A stretch of 54,885 bases of DNA from an uncultured Verrucomicrobiota bacterium (GTDB lineage: Bacteria > Verrucomicrobiota > Kiritimatiellia > PWTM01), in contig CAYLTB010000002.1 of NCBI GenBank assembly GCA_964386675.1, forward strand, positions 1 through 54,885, in the 5' to 3' direction. The position numbers and the translations under genes are program-made. Positions 17,315 to 40,667 of this stretch are shown piece by piece; within the stretch, counting starts at the first letter, position 1; every line of letters begins with the position of its first letter. The notes under the pieces were generated by a model. It was not told the DNA's origin and ran no database searches. It saw nothing but the letters and a program-made list of their open reading frames with translations.

Positions 17315-17591
17315 GGAGCAGCCTCCGTCGCAGGACTCCGCCACTCTGCGCGTCCGGGCCCGCCGGATCGTGCCATTTCCGTCGAGTATGTGAGACGACG
17401 GCCGGAAAGAAAAGGCAAGACTCAAGCCGCGGGTGTTGTCGAAGACCACCGAACCTCGCCGTCGAGCCGCCTCGGAACGGGCGGCGGCCATCTCCCGGCG
17501 GACGGGCACAAGCGTTGACCGGCTCGGATGCGTGGCCTTCGGAGTCCGCTGCAGGTGTTCCGGCATCCGACGCATGGCGGAGACGTCGGGA

Positions 17592-19262: not shown

Positions 19263-19836
19263 GGGAGGCTCTCGCTGTGGTTATGGACGTCTCGAACCGT
19301 TGACCTCACCCTAGGCTAAAAGGACCCTCGACCGGCCCGCATCGAGCCGGCGCCCTGGCGAGATTCGCCTCGCGGAGCGCGCGGGCATTTTCCCGACCCT
19401 GCCGCCCGGATCGTTCCGGGCGACAAGCGCGGAGTTCCGCCATGCTCCCGCGGGAGTGCGCGCATCGGCGGATGTCGTTCGAAGGGCAGAGTCGCGAGCA
19501 TGGCCGCGGTATCGTGCCGGCGGTGCGATCGAATACCGGACCGTGTACGCCCAGGGCCATCCCCGTCGCAGCGGCGGCGCCGGGAAGATCCGCTCGGTCC
19601 GGGCGATGCCGGACCGGCTCCTTGGATCGCCCGACCCGGGTTGCGAATCCGGCCTGCACGCCGGCGATCGCGGCGTTGACCTTCGCGGCTGATGCATCGT
19701 TCATGACACAGCTCCCCAAGACCCGACTCGGAGGAAGCGCCCCGGCACAGGGGTTCGCTTTCCCGATCATCTTGTAGGAGTCATCAGCCCGCAGGGCGGT
19801 TGGATCGAAGGGGGGACTCCATCCCCGGGACGGACG

Positions 19837-20778
19837 CTACCGCGAAGATTCCGATGAATCAACTGCAAATGGCGTCCGTGGTCGCTCCGGGTAGAGCGCC
19901 AGCAGCGCCGGCGCAAAGTCGTCGAGGCGGCGGACGCCGGCGCGCAGGCGTGCGGCGCCGCGGCCCAGCGCGATCAACGGCACGGGATTCAGCGTGTGAT
20001 GGCGCGTCGTGAGGTCCTCGATATTACCGTGGTCGCTGATCAGCGCGAGCAGGCCGCGCCGCGTGCGTGCCCACGGGGCCAGCGCCGTCAGAAACCGGTC
20101 CAGCTTCGCGAGCACCGCCTCAACGTCGCGCCGCTCGCCGCGGTGCGCCGCCAGATCGCTCTCGAAAAATTCGAACAGCGTAAAATCATGGACGCGCGCG
20201 ATGCCCAGCAAATGCGCGGCGGCCGTTTCCGGCGTCAACAACGGCCCGTCGTAGCCGCGGGCGCGGAGCGCGGCGCGGGTGAGATCATGATAGACGGCGC
20301 GGCCGGCCAGCAAGTCGCCGCGGTCCCGCACGGCGCCGAAGGCCGCGAGCGCGGCCGCGGTGGTGACCGAGACGCGCCTCCGTCGCCGGACTTCCTCGAG
20401 GTCGTCCGTAAAGAAAGCGTTCGCGAACGTGGCCGCATACTGCCGGCGGACCAGCTCGGAGAACAGGTTGTGCCGTTCGACGAACGCCCGCAGGCGCGGC
20501 CCCGGCATTCCTTCGACGTGTCGGCCCATACAGGCGGCCGCATTGCGCCCGGTGTACAGCGAGGCTTGGCCGGTCGCGCTCTGCGGCAGCCCCGGCACGC
20601 CCAGGCGTGCATCCACGGGAACGGCGCGGCGCAGCCAGCGCTCAAGGGTCGGGCAAACGCCTTTCCGGATCGGGCCGGCCGCCGGATCGTTGGGTCCGAG
20701 CCCCAGTCCGTCCACAAATACGAGCAGCGTGCGCGGAGCGGGCGCGGCCCGGCAGGGCCTCGGGTCGGGCGCATTCAT
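19837..20778 (-). CDS. Metalloenzyme-superfamily (alkaline phosphatase core / iPGM-phosphopentomutase-like) protein
   Basis: LLVFVDGLGLG near the N-terminus and LISDHGNIED near the C-terminus. Start could instead be 20847. Confidence 0.6.
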   Translation of the reverse strand: MNAPDPRPCRAAPAPRTLLVFVDGLGLGPNDPAAGPIRKGVCPTLERWLRRAVPVDARLGVPGLPQSATGQASLYTGRNAAACMGRHVEGMPGPRLRAFVERHNLFSELVRRQYAATFANAFFTDDLEEVRRRRRVSVTTAAALAAFGAVRDRGDLLAGRAVYHDLTRAALRARGYDGPLLTPETAAAHLLGIARVHDFTLFEFFESDLAAHRGERRDVEAVLAKLDRFLTALAPWARTRRGLLALISDHGNIEDLTTRHHTLNPVPLIALGRGAARLRAGVRRLDDFAPALLALYPERPRTPFAVDSSESSR

Positions 20779-20940
20779 GGGGCACACTATAGTCGGTCCG
20801 GCGCGATTCGTCGCCGTGTCCTGCGCGCCGCGCCTTTCTTTCTCCAAGAGGCTTGCAATACGCCGTTCGGTCTGATAAGCGAAAAGCCCCGATTAGACTT
20901 CCGCGTGCGCGGTGATTCGCGGGCGTATAAAAAAGGCTGA

Positions 20941-22407
20941 ATGAAACCCATCGTCATCCAAGATCAGCCGCGATTGAGTTTCTTTCGCACGGTATGGATC
21001 GCCGTGGACGGCATTCGATACCGGCTGTTCCGCGCCTTGGTCACGGTGGCGGTCATTGCGGTGGCGGTCGCGTTCCTGATGAACATTCTGAGCGAAAGTT
21101 TCATCAAACGCGCGGTGGCCCGGGAGACGCGCGACCGCATCGCGCGCGCGCGCCTCGTGCACGAGTGGGTGGCGCGGTTGACGGCCCCCGGCGACGTGGA
21201 GGGCATCCTCCGCGAACTGGCTGCCGGCCGTCCGGAGGCGCTGGCGGAGGCCGCGCGGTTCGGCGGATTCAACGCGGACGAAGTCGGGACTTTGCGGGAG
21301 TCCGCCGTCCTGGCGGTTCGGACGCTGGACTATCTCAACAGCTTGAACTACGCGCGTCGTCGGCGCCTGGTCCATGCGACGGCCGGGGTGGATATGCTGG
21401 CTTACCTGGCGACCCCGGAAGGCGGCCGCGCCTTCTTCGAGACGCTGGACCGAACGGCGGCGCTGCGGCTGCCGTTCCCGCGCGAGGACCTGCAGCGGCT
21501 GCTCGACGGCTGGCCGGACACGCGCGGCCGCGTGGATCGCATCCTCTCCGGCCGACGCGCGGCCGTTGCCCGCGTGACGGAGGCGCGCGGTCCGCGCGCG
21601 GTGCTGGAGGCGCTGGCCGAGGCGGACGGTCCGTTTGGTGACGCGGTCCGCGCGGCCGGCTTCCGGTTCGATGCGGCGGTGGCGGCGGCGGTCGCGGCGC
21701 AGGCGCGTCGCGAACTGGATATCCGCGCCGTGGAACGCGGACTGGACGTGCGCGCCGTTCGCCAGCTCGTGGCCCAGCACTTCGACGCGTTGCCGGGCGA
21801 CGTGACGGTCATGCAGCTCTGGCGGTTCGCGGAAGCGCCGGAGCGCGCGGAACGGATGTTGGCGGCGCTGCGGTCGGCCGGCGAATCCCGCGCCGGGCTG
21901 ATCGCCGCGCGGATCGGCGAGCTGGCGGCGCACCGGCGGGAGGCCGCCGCGCTGGAGCGGGCCGCGCGGCTGACGATTGGCGTCGGCGGCGGTTGGATGG
22001 GCTTGGGCGAACGGCTCAGCTGGCTGCTGATGGTGTCGATGCTGGTGTGCGCGATCGGCATCAGCAACGCGATGCTGATGACCGTGACCGAACGGTTCCG
22101 GGAAATCGCGACGCTGAAGTGCCTGGGCGCGCTGGACGGCTTCATCATGCTGATGTTCGTGCTCGAGAGCTGCCTGTTGGGCATTGTCGGCGGCGTGGCC
22201 GGCGGCCTGATCGGCGGCCTGATCGGCGCCGGCCGCATGCTGGCGGGATTCGGCGGCGTGGCGGGCGCGGCAATGCCGTGGGGCGACCTCGCCGTCGGCG
22301 TCGGGCTAGCGGTCGCCGTCGGCGTCGGGCTGGCGGCGATCGCGGCCGTGTATCCTTCGTTTCGAGCGGCGCGGCTGGCGCCGATGGAAGCGATGCGCGT
22401 CGAATGA
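20941..22407 (+). CDS. FtsX/MacB-type ABC permease with an atypical all-helical roughly 300-aa loop (operon gene A)
   Basis: TM1 (LVTVAVIAVAVAFLM), then a long Ala/Arg-rich region. Canonical FtsX block follows: ISNAMLMTVTERFREIATLKCLGALDGFIMLMFVLESCLLGIVGG plus two further TMs. Confidence 0.8.
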   Translation: MKPIVIQDQPRLSFFRTVWIAVDGIRYRLFRALVTVAVIAVAVAFLMNILSESFIKRAVARETRDRIARARLVHEWVARLTAPGDVEGILRELAAGRPEALAEAARFGGFNADEVGTLRESAVLAVRTLDYLNSLNYARRRRLVHATAGVDMLAYLATPEGGRAFFETLDRTAALRLPFPREDLQRLLDGWPDTRGRVDRILSGRRAAVARVTEARGPRAVLEALAEADGPFGDAVRAAGFRFDAAVAAAVAAQARRELDIRAVERGLDVRAVRQLVAQHFDALPGDVTVMQLWRFAEAPERAERMLAALRSAGESRAGLIAARIGELAAHRREAAALERAARLTIGVGGGWMGLGERLSWLLMVSMLVCAIGISNAMLMTVTERFREIATLKCLGALDGFIMLMFVLESCLLGIVGGVAGGLIGGLIGAGRMLAGFGGVAGAAMPWGDLAVGVGLAVAVGVGLAAIAAVYPSFRAARLAPMEAMRVE

Positions 22408-23216
22408 CCGTCACGGCAATCCAAACCGGCGCGCCCGCGTCGGCGGCCCGCGGCACGGAGCGCCGCGTGCTGATCCGCACGGTCGGCCTGAAGAAGTCCT
22501 ACCTGAAGAAGGGCGTGCTGACCGAAGCGCTGCGCGGACTCGACGTCGAGATCTTCTCCGGTGAATTCATTTCGGTGATGGGCCCCTCCGGCTCGGGGAA
22601 GAGCACCTTTTTCAATATGATCGGGGCGCTGGACAGCCCCAGCCAGGGCCGCGTGTTCATTGACGAGGTGGACGTCGCGCAGTTGACCGCCGAGGAGCTG
22701 GCCTACCTCCGCTGCCAGAAGATCGGCTACATTTTCCAGTCCTACAACCTCATCCAATACATGACCGCCCTGGAGAACGTGACGACGCCGATGGCCTTCG
22801 GCGGCGTGATGCCGGACGATGCGCGCCGCCGGGGCATGCGGATTCTCGAGATCGTCGGCCTCAAGGAGCGCTGGTTCCACCGGCCCATCGAGATGTCCGG
22901 CGGCCAGCAGCAGCGCGTGGCGATCGCGCGCTCGCTGGCGAACAACCCCAGCGTGCTGCTCTGCGACGAGCCGACAGCCAACCTCGATCTGCACACCGGC
23001 CAGGAAATCCTGGATATCCTCGTGCGGCTGAACAAGGAGCAGAAAGTCACGATCATCTGCGCGACGCACGACCATCGGATGATGAACGTCTGCGACCGTT
23101 TGATGTGGGTGCGGGACGGCCGCATCGAGCGTGTCGCGCGCCGCGAGGATGTGAAGATCGAGATCGGCAGCATCGGCGGCAGGCGCGCGTCCGCGCCGGA
23201 GACGAAGCCTTCATGA
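22404..23216 (+). CDS. MacB/LolD-type ABC ATP-binding protein (operon gene B)
   Basis: Walker A GPSGSGKST, Q-loop IFQSYNL, signature MSGGQQQRVAIARSL, Walker B LLCDEPTANLD, H-loop ATHD. ATGA overlaps on both sides. Confidence 0.9.
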   Translation: MTVTAIQTGAPASAARGTERRVLIRTVGLKKSYLKKGVLTEALRGLDVEIFSGEFISVMGPSGSGKSTFFNMIGALDSPSQGRVFIDEVDVAQLTAEELAYLRCQKIGYIFQSYNLIQYMTALENVTTPMAFGGVMPDDARRRGMRILEIVGLKERWFHRPIEMSGGQQQRVAIARSLANNPSVLLCDEPTANLDLHTGQEILDILVRLNKEQKVTIICATHDHRMMNVCDRLMWVRDGRIERVARREDVKIEIGSIGGRRASAPETKPS

Positions 23217-26200
23217 ATTCCGCCGGCCACCTCCGACGTCTCGGATTCGCCGCCGCCCTGGCGGCGTTCGCCGGACGCGCCCCCGCCGCGCCGCCTTCGT
23301 CCCGGTTTGCCGCGGACCTTGCAGCGCTGACGTCCGCGCCCCACCGGCTGACCGGCACGCCCGAAGGCGGCGCGGCCGCGGCGCACCTCGAACGGCGACT
23401 CCGCGAGATCGGCGCCGAGTGGGTCGTCGTTCAGCCGTTTGCCACCGTGCGCGCGGAGACGCGGCGCTGCGAACTGCGCCGGGCGGAAGGCGCGCCGCTC
23501 GCCCTGCTGCCGATGCGTCCGAACGGGCTGATGCTGCCGACGACTCCGCCGGGCGGCCTCCGCGGGCGCCTGGTCCGCGTGGGCCCGGGCGAGGCGAGCG
23601 ACTTTGCCGAGCGCGAGGTCCGCGGCGCGATCGTCGTGATGGACTTCAACGGTTCCGAGGGCTGGCTGCGCGCCTTTCGGCTCGGCGCGCAGGCGGTGGT
23701 CTTCACGCCGTCCGTCCGGCTCCACGGCACGACGGCCTACCACCTCGACGTGCAGTTGAACCTGCCGCGCTTCTATTACGACGGGCCGGCCGCCGACCTG
23801 CCCGACGGGGTGGAGGTGACGATCGAAAGCGAGATCGTCTGGCAGCCGGCCGTCGGCCGCAATATCGTCGCGTTTTTCCGCGGCACAAATCCCGTCTTCG
23901 CGCAGAACCGCGAGGAGGCGATCGTGCTGAGCGCGGACTACGACAGCTACGGCGCTGTGCCGGAACGGAGTCCCGACGCCCGCGGTGCGGCCAATGCCGC
24001 CGCGCTGCTGAAACTGGCGGAATCGCTGCGCGCTCGCCCCCCCCGCCGTCATACGCTGATCGTCTTTTTCGACGCGCAGTGGAACGCGCAGGAAGGGTCT
24101 TCGACCTTCTACATGGCGCTCGAAGACAAGCACGATCTCGCTTCGGTGGCGAAACGGCGCATGTCGCTCGACGCGGAACGCCAGTTTCTCGACGCGCTGC
24201 GGGGCGCGCTGGCCGAGCCCCACCCGCTGACGACCGCATCGCGGGTGCGGCGCGCGCTGCTCAAGCGGGTCGAAGACGCCGCCAAGAGCGGCGCCTTTGA
24301 AATCGGCGACCGAATGGCCGAACTGCGGCGCGAGCGACTCGCGCTGCGCGCGCAGCTCGGCACGCCGCCGCGCTCGAACCCGCCGCCGGAGATCATCGCG
24401 CAGATTGAGGAGATCGGACGCGAGCTGGACGAGCAACTGCAACCCGAGAAGGACCGATGGAACGACCTGCGCCGGGCGCTGAGCCGCGACCGGTACACCG
24501 GCCTCGCCCCGGAGGTCGAGGCGAAGCTTCAGTTGGCGTATGCGAAAGTCCGCGAGAGCGTCGAGCGAAGAAGCGCCGAGTTGGAACTGGAGGGCGCGCG
24601 GCTGGCGGCCGACGAGCAGCTGCAGGCGAGCCTGAAATCGTACTGGCTGACGCTGCACCTGGCGCTGTTGCTCGGCGACGCGACCGATCGTTGGGGGCTG
24701 ATCATCGGCGGCGATTCCTATTTCCGGCATCCGGACGACAACCCGGGCCTCTACGGCCGGCTGCAGAACGTCTTTCTCCGGGCGTATCGCGACCTCGAGG
24801 CCGCCGGCCGCGCGCCGGAGGCATTCGAGACGGCCACGGCCGACCAGACCCTGACGAACACGCGCATCCTGTTCGCCGGCCGCGGCGGATTGCGGCACGG
24901 CGGCGAGCCGGCGGGCGCCTTCGGTTTCTTCAATGCCGCGCTGGGCACGGTGCAGGAGGCGGCCGGCCGCGACGGGACGCCGTTCGATACGCCCGACCGC
25001 CTGGACGCCGGCCGTATCGAGCGGCAGACGGACGCGATCGCCCGGTTGCTGTTCGGATGTGCGAGCCTCGATGTGGAGGCGTCCCGGCCGGACGCTGCGC
25101 CCGAACCCGGCGAAACGGCCGGCGTCGCGGACCAGGCGGGCCTGTCGTTGCGGCGCGGCATTGTCGGCGGGAAGGAATACGCGTGGAGCCGGTTCGAGCG
25201 CGAGACCACGGCCGGCCCCACCGTCATGGGCATGCTGCCCGGAAGCTCCGTACCCGACACGCCGGTGCCCGGTGCGATGGTATTTTTCATGAATCGGAAC
25301 CCGGCGAGCCTGACCTTCAACGCAGCCAAGCCGCTCAACAGCTCGCTATTTCGCATCCTGCGCACGGACGAAAACGGCAACTACCGCCTCGGACCCTCGC
25401 CGGGCGGCGCCGGCTGGACGGACGCGCGCGGCTTCGCGGCGGTCTTCGACGATCGCGGCGAACTGGTCCTGGCGTCGAACCAGCAGACCCTGCAGCAGGT
25501 CAAGCAGCGGCTCAACGCGTTCCGCGCCCGCGCCGGCGGGATCGTCCTGCCACCGCCGCTGCGCGCCACGCTGCCGGCCGGCTCAACCGTTCGTCTGCTC
25601 TCGGCCTTCGAAAACGGGGACCTGGACCCCCGGAAGCGGCTCCACCTCGTCAACGACGGCGCGATCGCATGGTTTTCGGAGCAGCGCGAGAAGGCGGTCA
25701 AGATCTTCAACTTGGATGCGGTCTCGATGCTCGGCATCGGCCCCGAGCGGTTGGAGGAGGCCGGCGCGGAGGATGCGGCGTTCAACTGGCTCGGCGATGG
25801 GTTCCCGATGATCCCGCGCTGGACGCCCGTGCCGGCGACGCGGCGCTCGGCGGTGGACCTGTGGCGGCTGAACGAGTCGCGGCTGCGCGTGCTGCAGGGC
25901 AAGAACATCATCGACAGCTCGCTGGCGGAATTGCACGGCCGCGTGGAGGACCTGCTGCTGGAAGCGCAGCGCCGGCCGGCAACGCTCCGCGCGGAGGCGC
26001 TCGACGCCGAAGCGCTGTGGGCAGCGCGCCCGGTCTATCGGAAGACCCGCGCGATCATTGACGACCTGGTCTTTGCCGTGCTGATCCTGCTGGGCCTCGC
26101 GGTGCCGTTTGCCTTCGCGATGGAGCGCGTGGTCGTCGGCGCGGTCACGGTGTACCGCCAGATCGGCTGGTTCGTCGTATTCTTCGCGGCCACGTTTGGG

Positions 26201-28126
26201 ATCTTGTTCGTCTCGCACCCGGCCTTCGCGATCGCGAACACGCCGATCATCATCTTCCTGGGCTTCGCGATCCTGACGCTGTCGGGCATGGTCATCTCGA
26301 TCATCATGCGCAAGTTCGAGGTCGAGTTGAAGGCGATGCAGGGGATGACGGCGACCGTCCACGCGGCGGACGTCTCGCGCGTGAACACGGTGCTGGCGGC
26401 GATGCAGATGGGGATCTCGACGATGCGCCGCCGCCCGCTGCGGACGGCGCTGACGGCGGTGACGATTATCCTGCTGACCTTCACGATCTTGAGTTTCGCC
26501 TCCTTCGGCACGCAATCGGGACTGCTACGGCTCTTCGTCGCGCCGGCGCCCGGCTATGCCGGCGCCTGGATGCACGATGCCAACTGGCAGCCGATCGCGC
26601 CGGAGCTGCTGGATACCGTGGAAGGCCGCTGGGGCGCCGACGCCGACGTATGCGGCCGCTGGTGGATCTCGCCGCGCGCGCAGGCCGCCGCCGGCGGCCT
26701 GCTGACGCGCGAGGACGGCACGCGCCCGATCGAGATTCCCGCGGTGCTGGGGTTCGATGCGCGGGAAATCCGCCGCCGGCCGGATCTCGCCGCGCTGGTC
26801 GAGAGCGATCTGGAAGGCGCGATCCAGATCACGCCGGCGGTGGCCCGCGCGCTGGGTGTCGCGCCGGGCGACCGGGTGCGGTTCCGCGGCAAGTCGTTCC
26901 GCGTCGCGCGGCTCACGGACGCGACGGCGTTCTCGTCGGTGCAGGACATGGACGGCGCGAGCGTCTTGCCGGTGGACTTCACCGAGGTGCGGTCCAGCCA
27001 GCCGGCGAGCACCCAGGTTAGCGAGGAAGCCTCGCTGCATGCCTCCGTCAACTGGACGAGCCTGCCGGTGGATTCCGTGGCGATCCTGTCGGCCGCGGAA
27101 GCGCGGGCCATGGGCGCGGCGCTGCACGGCATCGCGGTCTATGCGGCGGACGTGCCGGCGGCGCGCGAGATCGGCGCGGCGCTGGCGCGAATGCTGCCGA
27201 TGCCGGTGGCCGTGACGCAGGAAAACGGCGTCTACCGCCAGGTGCTCGGAACGCTGGTGGCGGCCAGCGGCGCGGCGGACCTGTTTTTCCCGATCCTGCT
27301 GGGCGGCCTGGTGATCTTCGGAACGATGCTCGGCTCGGTGGCCGATCGCGAGCGCGAAATCTACACGTTCAGCGCGCTGGGCCTGGCGCCGCGGCACGTC
27401 GCCACGCTGTTTCTGTCCGAGGCGCTCGTCTATTCGCTGATCGGCGGCATGGGCGGTTACCTGCTGGCGCAAGGCATGGTCCGCATCCTCACCGCGCTGG
27501 CCGAGCACGGCTGGGTGCGCGTTCCGGAAATGAACATGTCCTCGACGAACACGATCGTCACGATCCTGATCGTCATGGCCACCGTGCTCGTTTCGGCGAT
27601 CTACCCGGCGGTCAAGGCTTCGAAGTCGGCCAACCCGGGCTTGATGCGGACGTGGCGGCCGCCGGCGCCCGACGGCGACCGGAGGGACATGATCTTCCCG
27701 TTCACGGTTTCCGAGTACGACCTGACGGGCGTCGTCAGCTTCCTGAAGGAACACTTCGACAACCACAGCGACACGGGGCTCGGTCGCTTCATGGCGCGCG
27801 AGAGCGCGCTGGTCCGGCCGCAGGGCACGCTCGGACTCCGCTCCACGCTGATGCTCGCGCCGTTCGACCTCGGCGTCAGCCAGCGCTTCCACCTGCAGGC
27901 GGTGCCCAGCGAGATCCCGGGCATTGACGAGGTGCATATCCGCCTCGAACGGATTTCGGGCCAGCCGAAAGACTGGCAGCGGCTGAACCGCGTCTTCCTG
28001 AAAGACCTGCGCCAGCAATTCCTGATCTGGCGCTCGATCCCGCAGGAGGCCATGGAAACCTATCGCGAGCGGACGCTGACGCACTTCGGCGCCGCGGCGG
28101 CGGAGACGAAACCGACGGCGAACTGA
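23213..28126 (+). CDS. 1637-aa fusion: signal/anchor + PA/M28 peptidase-like ectodomain + coiled coil + large ectodomain + FtsX-type permease module(s) + C-terminal cytoplasmic domain (operon gene C)
   Basis: N-terminus MNSAGHLRRLGFAAALAAFAG. PA-like GAIVVMDFNGSEGW...GAQAVVF. M28-like blocks with altered ligands (see findings). TM cluster from about 26060. MRRRPLRTALTAVTIILLTF permease start at 26423. FtsX block EREIYTFSALGLAPRHVATLFLSEALVYSLIGGMGGY. Confidence 0.8.
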   Translation: MNSAGHLRRLGFAAALAAFAGRAPAAPPSSRFAADLAALTSAPHRLTGTPEGGAAAAHLERRLREIGAEWVVVQPFATVRAETRRCELRRAEGAPLALLPMRPNGLMLPTTPPGGLRGRLVRVGPGEASDFAEREVRGAIVVMDFNGSEGWLRAFRLGAQAVVFTPSVRLHGTTAYHLDVQLNLPRFYYDGPAADLPDGVEVTIESEIVWQPAVGRNIVAFFRGTNPVFAQNREEAIVLSADYDSYGAVPERSPDARGAANAAALLKLAESLRARPPRRHTLIVFFDAQWNAQEGSSTFYMALEDKHDLASVAKRRMSLDAERQFLDALRGALAEPHPLTTASRVRRALLKRVEDAAKSGAFEIGDRMAELRRERLALRAQLGTPPRSNPPPEIIAQIEEIGRELDEQLQPEKDRWNDLRRALSRDRYTGLAPEVEAKLQLAYAKVRESVERRSAELELEGARLAADEQLQASLKSYWLTLHLALLLGDATDRWGLIIGGDSYFRHPDDNPGLYGRLQNVFLRAYRDLEAAGRAPEAFETATADQTLTNTRILFAGRGGLRHGGEPAGAFGFFNAALGTVQEAAGRDGTPFDTPDRLDAGRIERQTDAIARLLFGCASLDVEASRPDAAPEPGETAGVADQAGLSLRRGIVGGKEYAWSRFERETTAGPTVMGMLPGSSVPDTPVPGAMVFFMNRNPASLTFNAAKPLNSSLFRILRTDENGNYRLGPSPGGAGWTDARGFAAVFDDRGELVLASNQQTLQQVKQRLNAFRARAGGIVLPPPLRATLPAGSTVRLLSAFENGDLDPRKRLHLVNDGAIAWFSEQREKAVKIFNLDAVSMLGIGPERLEEAGAEDAAFNWLGDGFPMIPRWTPVPATRRSAVDLWRLNESRLRVLQGKNIIDSSLAELHGRVEDLLLEAQRRPATLRAEALDAEALWAARPVYRKTRAIIDDLVFAVLILLGLAVPFAFAMERVVVGAVTVYRQIGWFVVFFAATFGILFVSHPAFAIANTPIIIFLGFAILTLSGMVISIIMRKFEVELKAMQGMTATVHAADVSRVNTVLAAMQMGISTMRRRPLRTALTAVTIILLTFTILSFASFGTQSGLLRLFVAPAPGYAGAWMHDANWQPIAPELLDTVEGRWGADADVCGRWWISPRAQAAAGGLLTREDGTRPIEIPAVLGFDAREIRRRPDLAALVESDLEGAIQITPAVARALGVAPGDRVRFRGKSFRVARLTDATAFSSVQDMDGASVLPVDFTEVRSSQPASTQVSEEASLHASVNWTSLPVDSVAILSAAEARAMGAALHGIAVYAADVPAAREIGAALARMLPMPVAVTQENGVYRQVLGTLVAASGAADLFFPILLGGLVIFGTMLGSVADREREIYTFSALGLAPRHVATLFLSEALVYSLIGGMGGYLLAQGMVRILTALAEHGWVRVPEMNMSSTNTIVTILIVMATVLVSAIYPAVKASKSANPGLMRTWRPPAPDGDRRDMIFPFTVSEYDLTGVVSFLKEHFDNHSDTGLGRFMARESALVRPQGTLGLRSTLMLAPFDLGVSQRFHLQAVPSEIPGIDEVHIRLERISGQPKDWQRLNRVFLKDLRQQFLIWRSIPQEAMETYRERTLTHFGAAAAETKPTAN

Positions 28127-28140
28127 TCCCTTGGCGCGAC

Positions 28141-30144
28141 ATGCACCCGGACAAAGAACTCGAACAATATCGCTCGATCATGGAGGTGCCCTCGACCTTC
28201 CAGGAGGGCTTCCGCTGGTCGTCGCTGCTGGGCGCGATCTTCGTCGCGTTCCTGATGGTGCCGGGGGCGATCTACATGGGACTGCTCGCCGGCACGATGG
28301 AGATCGGCGCGGCGGCGTCCTGGGTGACCGTGATCCTGTTCATTGAGGTGGCCAAACGCGCGCACCGCAATCTGAACAAGTCGGAAATCTTCGTCCTGTT
28401 CTACATGGCTTCGACAGCCATGGGCATGCCGTTTTCGGGCCTGCTGTATCAGCAATTCTTTATCAACAGCGATGCCGCGGCCGCCACCGGCATCGCCGAG
28501 CAGCTTCCGCGCTGGTATGCGCCGCCGCTGGGATCGGCCTCGTACGGCGACCGGACGTTCTTCCGGGCGGAGTGGCTGCCGGTGATCGGCATGATGATCT
28601 TCGGCTCGTTCTTCAGCCAACTGGCCAACATGGTACTCGGCTACGGGCTGTTCCGAATCGCCAGCGACGTCGAGAAACTGCCGTTCCCGATGGCGCCGAT
28701 CGGCGCACAGGGCATCATGGCGATGGCCGAGGACATGGAGGAAAAGACCCGGAAGTCGGCCGAGTCGTCCTGGCGCTGGCGCGTGTTCGCGATCGGCGGG
28801 GCGATCGGCCTGGGCTTCGGCTTCATTTACCTGTTGCTGCCGACGCTGACCGGTGCGCTGACCGGCACGCCGGTGCAGATCTTCCCGATTCCGTTCTCCG
28901 ATTTCACGCAGCAGACGGGCCGATTTCTGCCCGCCGTCGCCACCGGCATCACCTGGGACTTCGGCCAGGTCATCCTGGGCATGGTCATGCCGTTCTACGG
29001 CATTATCGGAGGCTTCATCGGCTTTTTGTCGATCCTGACGGCCAACCCGATCCTGTACCGGCAGGGGATCCTGCGCACGTGGAAGTTCGGGGACGACACG
29101 ATCGCGACGATCTTCAACAACAACATGGATTTCTATTTCAGCTTCCACATCGGCGTCTCGGTCGCCATCGCGGCGGCCGGCATCATCGCGGTCGTGGGCA
29201 GCGTCCGGAAAATGCGCCGCGCGCGCGCCTCCAACGTCGCGGCAACCGCCGGCTCCGCGGTCCAGGGTGGACGCGGCGATATTCCGTCGTGGGTGGTGAT
29301 CGCGGTATATGTCTTCATCGTGGTGACCTACATCTGGGTCTCCGCGGCCCTGCTTCGCTGGCACCACGGCGGCTGGACGCCCGGCATCCGCAACCTGGTG
29401 CTGATCTTGATCGTGCTCGGTTTCGCCTACACGCCGTTGATCAGCTATGTCACCGCGCGGCTGGAGGGCATGGTCGGCCAGGTGGTCGAGATTCCGATGA
29501 TCCGCGAGGCTGCGCTGATCCTCAGCGGCTACCGCGGCGTCGCCTGCTGGTTTCTGCCAATGCCAATCGCGAACTACGGCGCGATGACGGTGTTCTACCG
29601 GCAGTGCGAGCTGACCGGCACCCGGTTCACCAGCATCTGGAAGACCAAGTTCTTCCTGTACCCGATCATCCTCCTGTCCTCGATCTTCTTCATGAACTTC
29701 ATCTGGGGCCTCGACAAGGTGCCCTCCAACGCCTACCCCTACGCGCAGCGGATCTGGGAGCTGAACGCCGCCAACCAGACCATCATGTTCTCGGCGACGC
29801 TCGGCGAATTCTCGCGCTTCGAGCAGGCCTTCCGCTGGCTGTATGTCTCCATCGGCGCCGCCTTCGGCAGCGTGCTGTTCTTCGGGTTGCGCTGGTTGGG
29901 CGCGCCGGTCATGCTGACCTACGGCGTTGTGCGCGGGCTCGGCCAGAACGTCACGCATTCGCCGATTCCCCAGCTGGTGGGCGCGCTCATCGGCCGTTTC
30001 TATTTCCAGCGGCGGCTCGGTCTGAAGTGGCGGCAGTACATTCCCGTCGTCGCCGCCGGGTTCGCCTGCGGCATGGGTCTGATCACCACGGTCGGCGTCG
30101 GCGTCACCTTCCTGAACAAGGCGATCATCAAACTGCCGTTCTGA
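28141..30144 (+). CDS. Large polytopic membrane protein, family unassigned (operon gene D)
   Basis: 667 aa with more than 12 hydrophobic segments throughout and protein-like composition. 14-nt gap from gene C. Possible OPT-like transporter, but not established. Confidence 0.7.
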   Translation: MHPDKELEQYRSIMEVPSTFQEGFRWSSLLGAIFVAFLMVPGAIYMGLLAGTMEIGAAASWVTVILFIEVAKRAHRNLNKSEIFVLFYMASTAMGMPFSGLLYQQFFINSDAAAATGIAEQLPRWYAPPLGSASYGDRTFFRAEWLPVIGMMIFGSFFSQLANMVLGYGLFRIASDVEKLPFPMAPIGAQGIMAMAEDMEEKTRKSAESSWRWRVFAIGGAIGLGFGFIYLLLPTLTGALTGTPVQIFPIPFSDFTQQTGRFLPAVATGITWDFGQVILGMVMPFYGIIGGFIGFLSILTANPILYRQGILRTWKFGDDTIATIFNNNMDFYFSFHIGVSVAIAAAGIIAVVGSVRKMRRARASNVAATAGSAVQGGRGDIPSWVVIAVYVFIVVTYIWVSAALLRWHHGGWTPGIRNLVLILIVLGFAYTPLISYVTARLEGMVGQVVEIPMIREAALILSGYRGVACWFLPMPIANYGAMTVFYRQCELTGTRFTSIWKTKFFLYPIILLSSIFFMNFIWGLDKVPSNAYPYAQRIWELNAANQTIMFSATLGEFSRFEQAFRWLYVSIGAAFGSVLFFGLRWLGAPVMLTYGVVRGLGQNVTHSPIPQLVGALIGRFYFQRRLGLKWRQYIPVVAAGFACGMGLITTVGVGVTFLNKAIIKLPF

Positions 30145-30153
30145 CGGAGCGCC

Positions 30154-30876
30154 ATGAGCGAAGTCCTCATCCAGATCCGCGGCGTCCGAAAAGAGTTCGA
30201 CCTCGGCCGGATCGTCATGCATGCGCTCAAGGAGATCAACCTCGACATCTTCCGCGGCGAGTACCTGTCGGTCATGGGGCCCTCCGGCTCCGGCAAGAGC
30301 ACACTGTTCAACATGATCGGGGCGCTCGACCGCCCGACCGCCGGCACGATCCACGTCGCCGGCGTCGAGCTCACCGCGCTGCCGCCGCGCAAACTGGCGC
30401 ACTTCCGCGGCAACTACATCGGCTACGTCTTCCAGTCCTACAACCTGCTGCCGGCCTACGACGCCGTGACCAACGTCGCGATGCCGCTCCTCTTCAGCGG
30501 CCGGCGCCCCGACGAGGCGGCCGCGCGCGCCCGCGAAGTGCTCACCCGCGTCGGCCTCGGCGAGCGCCTGACGCACCGGCCCGACGAGCTCTCCGGCGGC
30601 CAGCAGCAGCGCGTCGCCATTGCGCGCGCGCTCGCGAACGATCCGGCGATCATCCTCGCCGACGAGCCGACGGCGAACCTCGACCTGCACACCGGCGAGG
30701 AGATCATCCACCTGCTGCGCCGCCTCTGCCGCGAGCTCGGTGTCACGGTCATCACCGCGACGCACGACCACAAGATGCTCGACGTCTCCGACCGGATCCT
30801 TTGGATCGAAGACGGCGCCATCGCCCGGCTCGAACGCCGCGAGAACCTGGAAATCTCCACCGGTACGGTCGAATGA
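30154..30876 (+). CDS. MacB/LolD-type ABC ATP-binding protein, paralog of gene B (operon gene E)
   Basis: GPSGSGKST, VFQSYNL, LSGGQQQRVAIARAL, ILADEPTANLD, ATHDH. Roughly half of aligned positions are identical to gene B by eye, including the C-terminal tail. Confidence 0.9.
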   Translation: MSEVLIQIRGVRKEFDLGRIVMHALKEINLDIFRGEYLSVMGPSGSGKSTLFNMIGALDRPTAGTIHVAGVELTALPPRKLAHFRGNYIGYVFQSYNLLPAYDAVTNVAMPLLFSGRRPDEAAARAREVLTRVGLGERLTHRPDELSGGQQQRVAIARALANDPAIILADEPTANLDLHTGEEIIHLLRRLCRELGVTVITATHDHKMLDVSDRILWIEDGAIARLERRENLEISTGTVE

Positions 30877-30892
30877 GCCGGGGGGCGGCGAC

Positions 30893-33295
30893 ATGAGCCG
30901 ACGCAGCGTTCTGGCGGCCCTGCTGGGCGTTGCGGCGCTGTCGGCGGTCTCGTTCTACAACCTCTACGTCCTCCGCAATACGAACCTGGTCGGTTCGTAC
31001 CTGCCGGTGGGCGTGTTCGGGGGCCTCCTCCTTCTCGCGATCCTTTCCCAGTGGTTCCGGCGCGGGGCGGGCTCGCCGGCCGGCGTGGGCGCGGCCGTCG
31101 CCGTGCTGCTGTTCGGGTGCGGCATCGTCGGCTCCGCGCTGCTGGACCACGCCTCGACGCTGGCCATGCTCCCCTGGCGGCTGGACCGGTTGTATCCGGA
31201 CTGGCGTGGCGACCCGGCGTTGCCGGACGCGGCGGCCATCCGCGACGAAGTGGCCCTCGCGCGGGCGCTGGCGAATGCCGCCACGGCCCCGCCCGGCGAT
31301 CCGGCCGGCGTCATCGCCCGACGGATTCCCGAGGCCCTTCGGACGCGGGTCCGCACCCGCGAGTATGCGTCGGATCTGGTCGGACGCGAGGCGTGGCGCG
31401 AGGCGCTGTACGTCGCGCTGTCCGATCCGACGCTGGCCGACGAGGTGCCGCCGGAACGCCGGCCACCGCTGCCAAACTACATTCGCCGTTGGTTGCGGCG
31501 TCCCCCACAGGAACGGACGCCGAATGAAACGCTCGCTGTGAACCGCGCCCTGCTGGACGCGGCCTTCCCGCGGGAGATCGTCCCGCGCCGTCCTTCCGCA
31601 CTGGACCTGGCGCCGCCGGTCATGCTGGCCGATCCGTCCGCGGCGCCGGCGGTTGCACTGGAAGGCTTTGCCACGGGATTGGGGGAACCGAATCGGCCCT
31701 TCTCCTTCCGGGAAGTGCCCTGGGCCGCCTGGCGGCGGACGTTCGGGTTTTGGGGGCCGATGATCCTCGCGATGATCGTCATCGTGACCGGCCTGGCCCT
31801 GGTGCTGCACCGGCAGTGGTCGGAACATGAGCGCCTGCCCTATCCGGTGGCGGAGGTGGCGCGCGCCCTGCTGCCCGAGCCGGGCCAGACCGTCGCCGAG
31901 GCGCTCCGCCGTCGAGCTTTCTGGGCGGCCTTCGGTCTGGTGTTCTGCGTTCACGGCGCCAATTACGCCGCCCAATGGTGGCCGGACTTCGTGATTCGCG
32001 TGCCGCTCGAAATCGATCTGCGGCCGCTGCTACAGATCGCGCCGGTGATGCAGCGCCATTACACAATGCAATTGTTCCGGCCCACGCTGTACTTCTCCGC
32101 GATCGGACTGGCGTTCTTCCTGTCCTCCGATGTTGCGCTTTCGCTCGGTATCGGGCCGTACCTATTCTCGGTCTTGGTTGGAATCGCGGCGGGTCTCGGC
32201 TATGCCTTTGGAGGCGGGTTCCTGACGCAGAGTCTGCAAAGCCAGTTCAACGCCGGCGCCTACACGGCCATGTTTTTCGCGATCCTCTATTCGGGACGCC
32301 ATTACTACCTTTCGGCGGCACGGCGGGCGCTGGGTCTGCCGGCCCGTGATTCCGTGGAAGCAGGGGCTGTGTGGGGGGCGCGTGCTGCGGCGCTGGGCAT
32401 GGCCGTTTTCGTCGGCGGGCTCATGGCGGTCGGGGTCGAGCCGGCGCTGGCGGTGCTCTACACGCTGGGCGTCGTGATGATCTACACTGTGTTGAGCCGG
32501 CTGCTGGCGGAGGCCGGCGTGTTCTATATGCACTCCGGTTTCTTTCCCTGCGTGGTTCTGTGGAGTTTTCTGGGCACGCAGGCGGTCGGCTACGAGCAAT
32601 TGCTGTTGCTCGGGCTGGTCACGGCCATGTTTTTGAGCGACCCGAAAGATGCCCTGATGCCGTTCGCGATGATGGGCCTGCGGATCGCAGAGCGCTGCGG
32701 CGCGCGTCCGGCGGCGGTCGCCCGCTGGGGTGCGATCGGCGCCGCGCTCGCGTTGCTCATCGCCGCTCCGACCATGATCTATCTGCAATACCGACACGGC
32801 GCTCTGACGGCGGGCCACCCGTGGATGCACACCCATGTTCCGCGCGGCGCGTTCGTCCGCGCTTCGGCGATGACCCGCACGCTCCAGGCGCAGGGCACGC
32901 TCGGAGAGGCCGCCGCCATCCGTGGCCTCGCGCGCTTCGGTCGCGCGACGCCCCAGCCGGAGCAGGTGGCCGCTTTCAGTGCGTTTTTTGCGCTCACGCT
33001 GCTCTTCACCTTCCTGCGTCACCGATTCGCGCGCTGGCCGTTCCACCCGCTGATCTTCCTGGTCATGGGCACCTACCAGTCCAGCCTGATGGCCTTCTCG
33101 GTGCTGCTCGGGTGGGCCGTCAAGGGATTCGTCATGAAATACGGCGGCGCGCGTGCCTACCAAGGACTCAAACCAGTGATGATCGGACTGGTCGCCGGGG
33201 AGATCATGGCCGCCACGCTGCCGCTGGCCGTTGGCGCGATCTACGCCGCTGTCACCGGTCAGGCGCCGCCCCAGTTCCGCATCCTGCCCGGCTGA
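30893..33295 (+). CDS. Large polytopic membrane protein with a roughly 200-aa soluble insert, family unassigned (operon gene F)
   Basis: 800 aa. Start MSRRSVLAALLGVAAL at 30893, downstream of the track ORF start. Many TM segments. The C-terminal block GWAVKGFVMKYGG..Y..KPVMIGLVAGE resembles GALIGRFYFQRRLG..W..IPVVAAGFACG of gene D. Confidence 0.7.
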   Translation: MSRRSVLAALLGVAALSAVSFYNLYVLRNTNLVGSYLPVGVFGGLLLLAILSQWFRRGAGSPAGVGAAVAVLLFGCGIVGSALLDHASTLAMLPWRLDRLYPDWRGDPALPDAAAIRDEVALARALANAATAPPGDPAGVIARRIPEALRTRVRTREYASDLVGREAWREALYVALSDPTLADEVPPERRPPLPNYIRRWLRRPPQERTPNETLAVNRALLDAAFPREIVPRRPSALDLAPPVMLADPSAAPAVALEGFATGLGEPNRPFSFREVPWAAWRRTFGFWGPMILAMIVIVTGLALVLHRQWSEHERLPYPVAEVARALLPEPGQTVAEALRRRAFWAAFGLVFCVHGANYAAQWWPDFVIRVPLEIDLRPLLQIAPVMQRHYTMQLFRPTLYFSAIGLAFFLSSDVALSLGIGPYLFSVLVGIAAGLGYAFGGGFLTQSLQSQFNAGAYTAMFFAILYSGRHYYLSAARRALGLPARDSVEAGAVWGARAAALGMAVFVGGLMAVGVEPALAVLYTLGVVMIYTVLSRLLAEAGVFYMHSGFFPCVVLWSFLGTQAVGYEQLLLLGLVTAMFLSDPKDALMPFAMMGLRIAERCGARPAAVARWGAIGAALALLIAAPTMIYLQYRHGALTAGHPWMHTHVPRGAFVRASAMTRTLQAQGTLGEAAAIRGLARFGRATPQPEQVAAFSAFFALTLLFTFLRHRFARWPFHPLIFLVMGTYQSSLMAFSVLLGWAVKGFVMKYGGARAYQGLKPVMIGLVAGEIMAATLPLAVGAIYAAVTGQAPPQFRILPG

Positions 33296-33462: not shown

Positions 33463-33539
<77 letters not shown>

Positions 33540-33559: not shown

Positions 33560-34477
33560 ATGCCCATGAGCGATTCGGAAGGCAGCCGGAAGCCGCCGCC
33601 CGACGCCGCTCTCGCGGAGGGCGCGTCTGCATTGCTCTTCGCGTTCCTCGAGTGGCGGCGCCGCTGTGCGCTGGCCGCCTGCTCCGCTCCCTCCGCCGCG
33701 CGGCTCCGTGAATTCGCCGTGACGCGGTTCGACGCCTTCTGCCGCCGCTACGCGCCGTTTCCGGCCGCGCGCGTTCCCCATCCGCTCACGCCCGCGGCCG
33801 GCGATTGCTGGCACCTGTTCGAGACGCATTTGACCGTGGATGAGACCCGCGCGGGCAAGCGCTACAAACAATGGCTGTTCGAGGCCGCGCGCGCCGGCGA
33901 CGGCCCGCCGCTTGCCCGCCTGACCGGCGGCGCCGCGCTCCTGATGCGCGATGTTGTCCGCACCTGGCTCGCGCGCGAAGGACCGCGCCCCCGCACCGAT
34001 TCGCTTCAGGCGCCGCTGGGCGCGGACGTCGCCGGCGCCCGGCTGACGCTGGAAGACCTGTTGCCCGGCGAATCCGACCCCGCCGACGAAGCTGCGCAGC
34101 GCGACTTGGAGCGATGCGCGGCGGTGATCGCGGAGCGCGGCTGGCCGGATCTCGACCGCCGCGAGCGCATCGTGCTCGCGGCGCGGGAATGCGGGCGGAC
34201 GCTGTCAGACCCGGCGGTCGAGCGGGCGGCCGAGTGCCGAAAGAGCATGCTCTACGCCGCGTTCCGCGCCGTTCTCGCGCGACTGGCCGCGCAACTGCGC
34301 CGCGATTGCCGGGGCGAAGCCCCGTCAGCCCTGGCCGCGCTCGCGCGTTTGGCGCTGGCCGAGCTCAGCCGCCGCGCATTCCATTGGGCAAAATCGGAAA
34401 AGTCGTGCACCGCACTCTTCTCTAAAGCGGCAGCCCAGGCCGCGCCGACCGGGAAGCGGGGCGGATGCGCGATGTGA
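33560..34477 (+). CDS. Hypothetical protein (weak sigma-factor region-4-like segment; unconfirmed)
   Basis: Long ORF with plausible composition. The segment LDRRERIVLAARECGRTLSD faintly resembles an HTH/region 4. No confident family. Confidence 0.4.
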   Translation: MPMSDSEGSRKPPPDAALAEGASALLFAFLEWRRRCALAACSAPSAARLREFAVTRFDAFCRRYAPFPAARVPHPLTPAAGDCWHLFETHLTVDETRAGKRYKQWLFEAARAGDGPPLARLTGGAALLMRDVVRTWLAREGPRPRTDSLQAPLGADVAGARLTLEDLLPGESDPADEAAQRDLERCAAVIAERGWPDLDRRERIVLAARECGRTLSDPAVERAAECRKSMLYAAFRAVLARLAAQLRRDCRGEAPSALAALARLALAELSRRAFHWAKSEKSCTALFSKAAAQAAPTGKRGGCAM

Positions 34478-34602
34478 CGGCGTCGCGTCTGAAACGCCGT
34501 ACGGAGACGGAAAACGGCCAGGGTAGGGCGGAAACCGGATCCCATACAGATCTGGACCGAGCGGCAGGGCTTGGAATTCGGGATCCCACGAGGAAACGTG
34601 TT

Positions 34603-35373
34603 GTGAAGCAGAAGCGATTACCGGCGGTCCGTAGCTCGCGGCGGGACATGCGTCGGCGCGAGGCGCTCGCCGCGTGGTTACGCGAGTGGGAGATCGAGTG
34701 TGCGCTGGCCGAGGGCGTACGGTCGGAGTGCGCGGGCCCGTACCCTGCGCCGGCGCGGGCGCCGTTTTGCGGCCGCCGGCGAGCCGTGCGGGCGGGCGAG
34801 GTGCGTTTGCTGCGGCCCGCCGATAGCGGAGGGTATCTTCGATATTTCCTGGTGCTGGAGACGCCGGAGACCGGGCCGGTGCGCGCAGCGCCCTTCAGTC
34901 GCTTCGGCGCGCCGGCGTTTCCGGGGGAATGGCGCACCGGACATCCGGCGCCGGCACTCGGCGTGCTGTGCCTTTGGAATACGAGCGAGCTGCCGAGGAC
35001 GATTGCGGAGCGCGCGTGGCCGGTGGCCGACTTCGGGGCGGAGCGGTTGGCGGCGGCGCGCCAGGCGGCCGCGGCCGCCGTCGAGCTCGATCGGGATCCA
35101 CCGCCGGAATGGAGCGGCAGCGTCGGACCGCCCTTGCAGCACCCGGACGATCCGCGTTGGCGGTACCTCCAGGAAGAAGCGCAGGTTTGGGAGCGGATCG
35201 CTGCGCTCGAAGGCGAGGAAAACCGCGCCCGGCCAACCTTGGTGCTGCGCGACGGTCGGGCGCTGTATGGACCGGGCTCGGAGACCGCGCTGCCGCAGGC
35301 CGCTGAGCCAAAACCCGGTTATGCGTCGCGCGAACAGAAGAAAGGAGGTGGAACACGCGGTGCGGGGCGATAA
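34603..35373 (+). CDS. Hypothetical protein
   Basis: GTG at 34603 is preceded by AGGAAA 6 nt upstream. The track ORF begins at 34465. No family recognised. Confidence 0.35.
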   Translation: MKQKRLPAVRSSRRDMRRREALAAWLREWEIECALAEGVRSECAGPYPAPARAPFCGRRRAVRAGEVRLLRPADSGGYLRYFLVLETPETGPVRAAPFSRFGAPAFPGEWRTGHPAPALGVLCLWNTSELPRTIAERAWPVADFGAERLAAARQAAAAAVELDRDPPPEWSGSVGPPLQHPDDPRWRYLQEEAQVWERIAALEGEENRARPTLVLRDGRALYGPGSETALPQAAEPKPGYASREQKKGGGTRGAGR

Positions 35374-38346: not shown

Positions 38347-38353
38347 TAGCCGA

Positions 38354-38399
38354 TTCCAAAGGTTGAAAACCGCGGGGCCGGTTTTCCCAAGGGTTGGAA
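38354..38399. repeat. Double-dyad repeat, copy B (TTCCAAAGGTTGAAA-N15-TTCCCAAGGGTTGGAA)
   Basis: Begins 8 nt from the hypF start codon. Same order and orientation as copies A and C, slightly degenerate. Confidence 0.75.
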
Positions 38400-38626
38400 A
38401 TAGAACCGGGCTCTTGATCCGAGCCAGGAAAGCGCGCCGGCCGGAACCGGACCCGGACCGGCGCGCAGACGATGCGCGCGCCACTCGCGGAACCGTGGGT
38501 CCTTCACATCGGCGCGTGACGCGCCTCGGCCTGAAGTCGGGGTCATGTGCTCGGGAAACATAGCGCATCGGCGCGGTCCGCGCCGAGCCGGGAAAGCGGA
38601 TCGAGCGGCGCGAAGCGCTCGGCCGC

Positions 38627-40529: not shown

Positions 40530-40667
40530 CCGGTGTTCGCCGGCCGATTCTCCCGAGGCCGACGCCGCGCCGGAGGCATCGAAAGCCTTCGCGCTTGCCG
40601 GGGCCGCGGGCGGGGTTGTATGAGAGCAGCACCGCGCGCGAGGTCGCGCGCGGCGGGGGAACGAGCC

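Follow-up and report, generated by a model that had tools for sequence, protein, structure and literature searches.

What kind of membrane machine is encoded when ATPases of the MacB type are interleaved with large membrane proteins in a single run of genes, and does such an arrangement hold beyond the genome in which it was noticed? The question is raised by six genes, here called A to F, that occupy positions 20941 to 33295 of a 54,885-nucleotide (nt) stretch of DNA from an uncultured Verrucomicrobiota bacterium (Kiritimatiellia, PWTM01; contig CAYLTB010000002.1 of assembly GCA_964386675.1), referred to below as the window. A preliminary description, prepared from the letters of the window alone, had proposed that they encode an undescribed envelope machine. 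Our analysis points to a conserved pairing of a MacB/FtsX-type ATP-binding cassette (ABC) engine with membrane proteins of the OPT fold. In keeping with the earlier proposal, full-text searches of the literature found no description of the cluster or of an FtsX-ABC/OPT-fold pairing, and no mention of DUF6785 or DUF6784, the two Pfam families matched by F. The set comes in pairs, with two FtsX permeases (A and C), two MacB-type ATPases (B and E) and two proteins assigned to the OPT fold (D and F).

Conservation was assessed by scanning with an alignment of D, one genome per species, which detected at least 595 genome stretches encoding a relative of this protein. Eighty of these loci were retrieved and A to F were placed in them by tblastn, each gene being testable only where the contig reached far enough. 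The 80 loci span Lentisphaeria/Victivallales, Kiritimatiellia, Verrucomicrobiota (including Akkermansiaceae), Planctomycetota (mostly Phycisphaerae), Omnitrophota and Fibrobacterota, together with one Armatimonadota bin. Across the testable D-anchored loci, A-B-C-D-E occurred in one order and on one strand. C was present in all 59 testable loci (32-74% identity to the window protein, measured here and below on the best tblastn segment), B in 54 of 55 (64-90%), A in 52 of 53 (30-60%) and E, directly after D, in 63 of 64 (52-94%), while D itself, the anchor, was 51-80% identical. The flanking genes vary between lineages. Because the order of the five genes is kept across phyla, A-B-C-D-E is the invariant core of an anciently linked, co-inherited unit. 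Gene-neighbourhood conservation had been suggested as a check on the proposal, and the co-conservation of these genes contradicts a fortuitous adjacency. Mirror-tree analysis of distance co-variation gave partial correlations of 0.66 for A-C, 0.49 for C-D, 0.37 for C-E and -0.04 for D-E, which we treat as weak evidence.

The position of F was more variable. Among 36 loci with enough flanking sequence, it lay upstream of A in 18 and downstream of E in 3, and loci that lacked it carried no conserved extra genes downstream of E. This bears on the proposal that the cluster consists of two modules, each with an ATPase between two membrane proteins, which depended on the order D-E-F: F was found within 10 kb in only 21 of the 36 loci, 18 times on the far side of A. 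The two-module architecture is therefore not established, and we found no ground to prefer E as the energy source of D and F over E as a second ATPase of the A/C pair.

Most loci also carry two genes beside the cluster that we call G1 (about 290 amino acids (aa), no known family) and G2 (about 130 aa, PqqD/RRE-like). Examples lie at positions 1244-2524 of locus L003, 1161-2614 of L081 and 1553-2859 of L010, and in some genomes (L003, L072, L057) the two are fused into a protein of about 430 aa. The G2 domain matched the Pfam PqqD/RRE-like family at 6.4e-10 and, weakly, the NCBIfam models for ScmD, PqqD and lasso-type chaperones; G1 had no Pfam or PDB relative. A six-gene system is thus an accurate account of the window, while most lineages add G1 and the PqqD-like G2.

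The gene structure that had been claimed, including every overlap and gap, was reproduced exactly by translation. Gene A (20941-22407; all six genes are on the + strand) is an uninterrupted open reading frame (ORF) for an FtsX/MacB-type permease of 488 aa. It is joined to B (22404-23216; 270 aa, a LolD/MacB-type ABC ATPase), whose ATGA start overlaps the A stop codon, and B is joined to C (23213-28126; 1637 aa, a giant FtsX-type permease) by a second 4-nt ATGA overlap. Gaps of 14, 9 and 16 nt then separate C from D (28141-30144; 667 aa, a polytopic protein that we place in a divergent branch of the OPT family), D from E (30154-30876; 240 aa, the second LolD/MacB-type ABC ATPase) and E from F (30893-33295; 800 aa, a polytopic DUF6785+DUF6784 protein). 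The same six frames were singled out by codon-position G+C, and genes predicted independently on a closely related contig (L085, with an F that is 84% identical) gave proteins of 270, 1645, 669, 240 and 800 aa with equal overlaps. The G+C content of the window is about 69%, and the composition of the operon is uniform with that of the surrounding DNA. As a result of this high G+C content, long spurious ORFs are abundant on both strands, both antisense and out of frame, as exemplified by one of 944 aa antisense to D and E (28060-30894, - strand).

Upstream, the cluster is bounded by a divergent gene (19837-20847, - strand; Pfam Metalloenzyme, 8.3e-13), and the intergenic segment between this gene and A (20848-20940) is the presumed promoter region. 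Downstream, a tRNA-Ala gene (anticodon CGC; 33463-33539, + strand) begins 167 nt past the F stop codon. A T-run, CCTTTTTTTGC, is located between F and the tRNA gene. Consensus scans for sigma-70-like promoters gave no match, either upstream of A or inside the cluster, and sigma-54 patterns occurred at chance level, with none upstream of A. Terminator-like stems within the genes numbered 15 against an expectation of 7.8 +/- 3.0, all of them short and weak; these scans detected no strong internal terminator or promoter in the cluster, and an Rfam scan inside the operon gave no match. Since the genes are compact, lie on the same strand and are interrupted by no strong internal signal that the scans could find, co-transcription of all six is likely, and the earlier reading of the cluster as one operon-like unit stands.

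The two ATPases were assigned with little ambiguity. B and E share 53% identity across 236 aa (E value 1e-94), which agrees with an earlier estimate by eye of about one half, and both matched Pfam ABC_tran (7.5e-30 and 6.4e-35, respectively). The best NCBIfam match of each was LolD (TIGR02211), at 214.2 bits for B and 225.8 bits for E, neither of which reaches the cutoff of 307.75. Their best relatives among NCBIfam models and PDB sequences were LolD, MacB, DevA, FtsE and MJ0796; E matched MJ0796 at 4.5e-63, and MacB and LolD as well. The Walker A, Q-loop, signature, Walker B and H-loop motifs were canonical in 55 orthologs of B and 72 of E, with no sign of a degenerate ATPase site in either set. 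These comparisons identify B and E as LolD/MacB-type paralogs whose catalytic motifs are intact. A C-terminal tail common to the two had been singled out as unusual, but E aligns through residue 229 with MJ0796, MacB and LolD. Long versions of the E reading frame (up to 993 aa), considered as possible Rosetta-stone fusions of E with D or F, were rejected as out-of-frame extensions in GC-rich DNA; among the related loci no fusion of E to D or F was found, and long variants of F merely carry a bigger insertion.

A and C were both found to carry FtsX domains, as had been claimed (Pfam, 1.3e-12 for A and 3e-11 for C, at residues 1359-1471 of the latter). Their FtsX modules align with each other (hhalign probability 98.3%, E value 2.7e-14) and the coupling-helix motif is kept in both, which identifies the two, by sequence comparison, as paralogous FtsX permeases. 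In A, a first transmembrane helix (TM1, residues ~30-52 in a hydrophobicity scan) precedes a periplasmic domain of about 300 aa that is rich in Ala, Arg and Glu (residues ~55-355; 21103-22005, + strand), and this is followed by the FtsX helices TM2-4 (residues 364-470; 22030-22350, + strand). Searches against PDB sequences matched A to a Spr0695-type permease, LolF, MacB and LolC in its C-terminal 130 aa only; between them, the FtsX domains of A and C also matched YtrF. Residues 54-353 gave no match to any Pfam family, including MacB_PCD, and no PDB relative.

C is a composite of a signal-peptide-like N-terminus, an M28/PA ectodomain, some 600 periplasmic aa without a family match, a block of three transmembrane helices, the FtsX module and a cytoplasmic C-terminal domain. 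Within the unmatched region, residues ~480-600 were considered as a possible second half of the M28 domain, and residues 470-625 had no Pfam or PDB relative. The three-helix block (residues ~945-1035; 26045-26317, + strand) was delineated by hydrophobicity and has conservation values of 0.69-0.76. Comparison by hhalign with the FtsX domains of C and A (E values 0.1 and 0.37) led us to reject the idea that this block is a degenerate FtsX repeat, by which C would have been a pseudo-dimer sufficient in itself. C accordingly contains only one FtsX domain, and in this it differs from the duplicated permeases of the ADOP type, even though ADOP was its best NCBIfam match (39.8 bits against a cutoff of 622). 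The FtsX module (residues ~1075-1475; 26435-27637, + strand) consists of one transmembrane helix, a periplasmic domain of about 240 aa and three further helices with the coupling-helix motif DREREIYTFSALG. It matched PDB sequences 5xu1_M (1.1e-6) and MacB (9e-5), and residues 1081-1346 matched MacB_PCD weakly, below cutoff (E value 0.039).

The cytoplasmic C-terminal domain of C (residues ~1478-1625, about 150 aa; 27644-28087, + strand) is marked by the motifs FPFTVS, LAPFDLGV and QFLIWR and has a mean column identity of 67% among 13 diverse orthologs from across phyla. It gave no Pfam match and no PDB sequence match below an E value of 0.1, and is a candidate for a new domain family. Residues 957-1514 of C (window positions 26081-27754) matched the PADLOC model PDLC01991, 'CARF_m8--CARF_LolE_TM', at 4.6e-48. 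The match corresponds to profile positions 78-594 of 810 and takes in the three transmembrane helices and the FtsX module only; the alignment leaves out profile positions 595-810 and C residues 1515-1637, and any CARF part located there is unmatched. We take it as a lead for the C-terminal domain and as no evidence for a role in defence. The architecture of three transmembrane helices plus FtsX recurs in proteins annotated as CARF-fused under this model, whose likeness to C lies in the membrane part.

The ectodomain of C had been described as peptidase-like. A profile of residues 30-345 built from 12 orthologs matched the PDB sequences of aminopeptidase 2ek8 (3.8e-11) and YwaD (8.9e-8), as well as the transferrin receptor (3.5e-4) and nicalin (2.3e-3), with nicastrin below threshold (E value 0.14); Pfam M28 on the single C sequence reached only 0.034. 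These matches identify it as a true homolog of M28 peptidases, with a PA insert, at residues ~39-311 (23327-24145, + strand). Enzymes of the M28 family bind zinc through conserved His, Asp, Glu, Asp and His residues and use a catalytic Glu. In the profile alignment, the enzyme motifs HHDS, GANDD and GAEE stand opposite aalDs, pgarg and fDnq in C, and the residues that replace the ligands are themselves conserved among orthologs. The alignment stops at about residue 311, before the position of the last His ligand is reached. Because the zinc-ligand motifs are replaced, the domain is probably non-catalytic, and we infer that it serves in binding or as a scaffold. The homology that had been noticed is thus real, while a 'processing' peptidase is unlikely. 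Nicastrin, nicalin and the transferrin receptor are likewise M28/PA homologs without zinc ligands that are tethered to a membrane complex; in C, by contrast, it is a periplasmic part of a bacterial FtsX permease. By analogy with these proteins it might act as a receptor or gatekeeper.

D and F had been taken for giant membrane proteins of an unfamiliar, non-FtsX kind, a view that our results replace. Homologs of D are numerous: 3377 of 8000 candidates scored had E values of 1e-3 or below, the best 120 being 65-93% identical, and source annotations of family members read 'peptide transporter' or 'OPT/YSL family transporter'. Its cytoplasmic N-terminal segment, DKELEEFR..MEVPSTFEEGF, is invariant. 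The window D itself had no Pfam match. PF03169 (OPT) matched 11 of 13 D orthologs (best 1.1e-9), and four orthologs scanned singly scored 27.6-35.9 bits against a gathering score of 25.8. The highest of these, P0077 (35.9 bits), was collinear with the profile over positions 103-616 of 623. As most orthologs match PF03169, and P0077 does so collinearly, we regard D, by sequence, as a probable divergent member of the OPT family.

F reached a similar destination by a different route. It matched DUF6785 (PF20581; 207.9 bits, 3.1e-61) and DUF6784 (PF20580; 71.7 bits, 6e-20), as did all 17 relatives tested, in a family with 4900 cluster representatives at E values of 1e-3 or below; the Pfam description of DUF6785 also mentions archaea. 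There was no sequence match of F to PF03169. An AlphaFold2 model of F, built from a 69-sequence alignment, had a mean predicted local distance difference test score (pLDDT) of 94.9 and a predicted template-modelling score (pTM) of 0.94. Foldseek comparison of this model with the PDB returned 7wsr_A (HvYS1) at an E value of 3.7e-6, probability 1.00 and a template-modelling score of 0.69 normalised to the target. Only two matches were significant, both of them barley Yellow Stripe 1, and all others had E values of 0.08 or above. The predicted fold of F is therefore that of the OPT/Yellow-Stripe proteins. A helical insertion at residues ~101-276 (31193-31720, + strand) varies in length among relatives: it is missing from those of about 680 aa and is a coiled-coil-like segment of about 400 aa in those of about 1000 aa (P0159, P0175, P0224).

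The resemblance between D and F that had been pointed out is accordingly one of superfamily. Pairwise BLASTP gave an E value of 0.027 and no recognisable likeness, whereas the two profiles aligned weakly but collinearly over the N-terminal third (E values 3.6e-4 and 5.6e-4, probability 30-37%). This alignment is centred on a shared E[KR]LP[FY]P motif, which we take to resemble the L-x-[FY]-P-x-G signature of OPT/YSL proteins; in both D and F, L-P-[FY]-P is located after a transmembrane helix. D and F thus appear akin at the level of profile and fold only, within the OPT superfamily. D orthologs score above the OPT gathering score and the F model superposes on HvYS1, but D differs from other OPT/YSL proteins in the fixed operon position of its gene, which has an FtsX permease gene before it and an ABC ATPase gene after it, and F in its lack of a PF03169 match and its variable insertion. 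The characterised OPT proteins known to us work on their own, as proton-coupled carriers that import peptides, glutathione or metal chelates, and we know of no ATPase or ABC partner for any of them. The constancy with which D sits between C and E makes it less likely that D works alone. Placement of D and F in a characterised transporter family with a known ABC partner had been named as the outcome that would speak against a new machine; such a family was found, probably by sequence for D and by predicted fold for F, but no ABC partner of that family is known to us.

How does this assembly compare with known systems? The genes lolC, lolD and lolE are arranged as permease, ATPase and permease. 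This order recurs in A-B-C, whose two FtsX permeases are likewise paralogs; B and E find their best NCBIfam match in LolD, and A and C match LolC, LolE and LolF in the FtsX domain. The likeness ends there: the equivalog cutoffs are missed by B and E (see above) and widely by A (35 against 362.45 bits) and C (12.3 against 473 for LolC, NF008076), the periplasmic domain of A has no similarity to MacB_PCD, and C adds an ectodomain of about 900 aa, three extra transmembrane helices and a cytoplasmic domain. A second ATPase and two subunits assigned to the OPT fold are also present here. In more general terms, A and C have the topology of type VII ABC permeases, with TM1, a periplasmic domain and TM2-4, and B and E are ATPases of the MacB/LolD/FtsE clade with intact catalytic motifs. 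In the type VII system BceAB-BceS, the partner is another integral membrane protein. OPT-fold partners have, to our knowledge, been reported for no type VII system. Mechanotransducers of this type that work with partners include MacAB-TolC, FtsEX-EnvC and YbbAP-TesA (PMC12646458). These three systems and BceAB-BceS share with the present cluster a MacB/LolD-type ATPase and an FtsX permease with a working periplasmic domain. Here, no gene for a membrane-fusion protein, outer-membrane factor, EnvC-like protein, TesA-like protein or kinase is conserved, and there are two distinct ATPase genes.

We favour, with slightly less than even confidence, the interpretation that A to F are subunits of a single inner-membrane machine of the Planctomycetota-Verrucomicrobiota-Chlamydiota (PVC) group and a few neighbouring phyla. 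Its engine would be a type VII (MacB/FtsX-type) ABC module, composed of A and C with B, E or both, in which A and C would most likely form a LolC/LolE-like heterodimer. HvYS1 (7wsr/7wst) is a homodimer joined through its scaffold domains (PMC9691689), and since it pairs with itself, a D/F heterodimer would be a reasonable expectation. Hydrolysis of ATP on the cytoplasmic side would set the large periplasmic domains of the two permeases in motion. The apparently dead M28/PA ectodomain of C would probably provide a binding platform for a peptide or protein N-terminus, for which nicastrin and the transferrin receptor, with the same fold, offer a precedent, and D and F would supply a route through the membrane. 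If a cargo is to be guessed at, a peptide-like molecule seems the best candidate, given that an OPT fold, an M28/PA fold and, in most relatives, a PqqD-like gene occur together. The gene structure, the family assignments, the predicted fold of F, the replaced peptidase ligands and the synteny come from the analysis itself, whereas the assembly of the proteins into one complex, the docking of ATPases on particular membrane subunits, the substrate and the direction of transport are inferred.

Several observations weigh against this interpretation. F was absent within 10 kb in 15 of the 36 informative loci, is on the opposite strand in L050 (Verrucomicrobia bacterium LW23), and may be a looser partner; profile searches found G1 and G2 nowhere in the 55-kb window; the D sequence profile matched nothing in the PDB at an E value of 10 or below, and an AlphaFold2 model of D built with 13 close homologs reached a pLDDT of only 39.9, leaving the weak Pfam matches of its orthologs to define its fold. 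The idea of a peptide substrate is drawn by analogy from themes of the families concerned. In addition, OPT proteins are, as far as is known, proton-coupled carriers that need no partner, and D might be no more than an importer under shared regulation. The last point is developed in an arrangement in which A+B and C+E, as tandem-duplicated half-units, form one heterodimeric type VII ABC transporter, with D, and F when present, as ordinary proton-driven OPT-type importers that are only expressed together with the transporter or act after it, and are not energised by it directly. A is paralogous to C and B to E, as would be expected if a permease-ATPase pair had been duplicated, with D entering between C and E; distances co-vary more for C-E than for D-E; and OPT proteins are not known to need an ATPase. 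D, however, never leaves the cluster, having C upstream in 59 of 59 loci and E downstream in 63 of 64; its identity to the window protein (51-80%, against 30-74% for A, C and F) is unusual for a mere co-regulated permease; and both ATPase sites are canonical, without the degenerate site that is common in heterodimeric ATPase pairs. We judge this arrangement unlikely.

Rather unlikely too, though slightly less so, is the model of the preliminary description, in which two ATP-driven transporters are encoded side by side: a LolCDE-like complex of A, C and two copies of B, and a dimer of E that energises the pair D/F. A-B-C alone has the parts list and gene order of LolCDE, which leaves E to spare; E follows D directly in 63 of 64 loci; its motifs are canonical in all 72 orthologs, so that it must hydrolyse ATP for something; and the invariant cytoplasmic N-terminal segment of D could be a docking element. 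As far as we know, however, MacB/LolD-type ATPases occur only with FtsX-type membrane domains, and the OPT family has no ATPase partner. F is not consistently beside E, D-E and E-F fusions were not found in related loci, and D-E co-variation is weaker than C-E co-variation (partial r -0.04 against 0.37), itself weak evidence. For HvYS1, the sole solved OPT structure, an elevator-like carrier mechanism is favoured by the authors of the structure (PMC9691689). A role in maturation or export of a ribosomally synthesised and post-translationally modified peptide (RiPP), with the PqqD-like protein presenting a precursor that the ABC and OPT-fold proteins export or process, is suggested by the PqqD/RRE-like domain that most lineages encode next to these genes, either by itself or as part of a G1 fusion, as in RiPP clusters with such an element. 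We consider this quite improbable: no conserved precursor-like small ORF, modifying enzyme or downstream gene was seen beside the cluster, the whole window lacks G1 and G2, the peptidase-like domain of C lacks catalytic ligands, and 51-94% conservation of D, B and E across phyla fits a housekeeping machine better. That the genes are unrelated transporters in chance proximity, or a mobile defence-type cassette, is an exceedingly improbable reading. It draws on the PDLC01991 match to residues 957-1514 of C (4.6e-48), which is limited to the membrane part of that protein, none of the other five having a specific defence match beyond generic ATPase ones; composition is uniform with the surrounding DNA, and synteny that is invariant across several phyla while flanks differ already contradicts it.

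The DNA around the operon contains several other recognisable features. A fluoride riboswitch (RF01734; 19768-19835, - strand) scored 53.9 bits, above its gathering score of 34. Downstream of it are a 154-aa ORF without a Pfam match (19306-19770, - strand) and a Na+/H+ exchanger-CBS gene (17592-19262, - strand). Together these probably form a fluoride-response unit beside the divergent neighbour of the operon. Past the tRNA-Ala gene are two Ala/Arg-rich ORFs (33560-34477 and 34465-35373, + strand) with coding-like codon bias, no Pfam match and no relative in 85 loci; they may be genes peculiar to this lineage, or products of the high G+C content alone. Unrelated neighbours include genes for a PAS histidine kinase (11050-12654, + strand), a type I ABC exporter (13299-15542, - strand), a GH39-like glycosidase (15914-17890, - strand), the HypF carbamoyltransferase (36004-38568, - strand) and a GHMP-kinase/nucleotidyltransferase fusion (40533-42587, + strand).

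The presence of D in at least 595 species-level genomes, and the 51-94% identity of D, B and E across phyla, fit a core cellular function. The cluster joins two transporter worlds that were not known to be connected, the type VII ABC mechanotransducers and the OPT/Yellow-Stripe fold. It also brings a predicted OPT/Yellow-Stripe fold to Pfam DUF6785/DUF6784, with its approximately 4900 cluster representatives, and reveals a probable bacterial pseudo-peptidase ectodomain that forms one protein with an FtsX permease and is similar to the ectodomains of nicastrin and the transferrin receptor. More specifically, E might dock directly on D, with or without F, such that ATP drives an OPT-type domain, and A to F, with G1 and G2 where present, would constitute a PVC-wide housekeeping envelope machine. 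We regard this extended proposal as unlikely, but if E does drive D directly, the system would represent an entirely new class among ABC transporters. The envelope of PVC bacteria and their uptake of large substrates are poorly understood, and an ATP-driven membrane complex specific to this group would provide a concrete, testable candidate.

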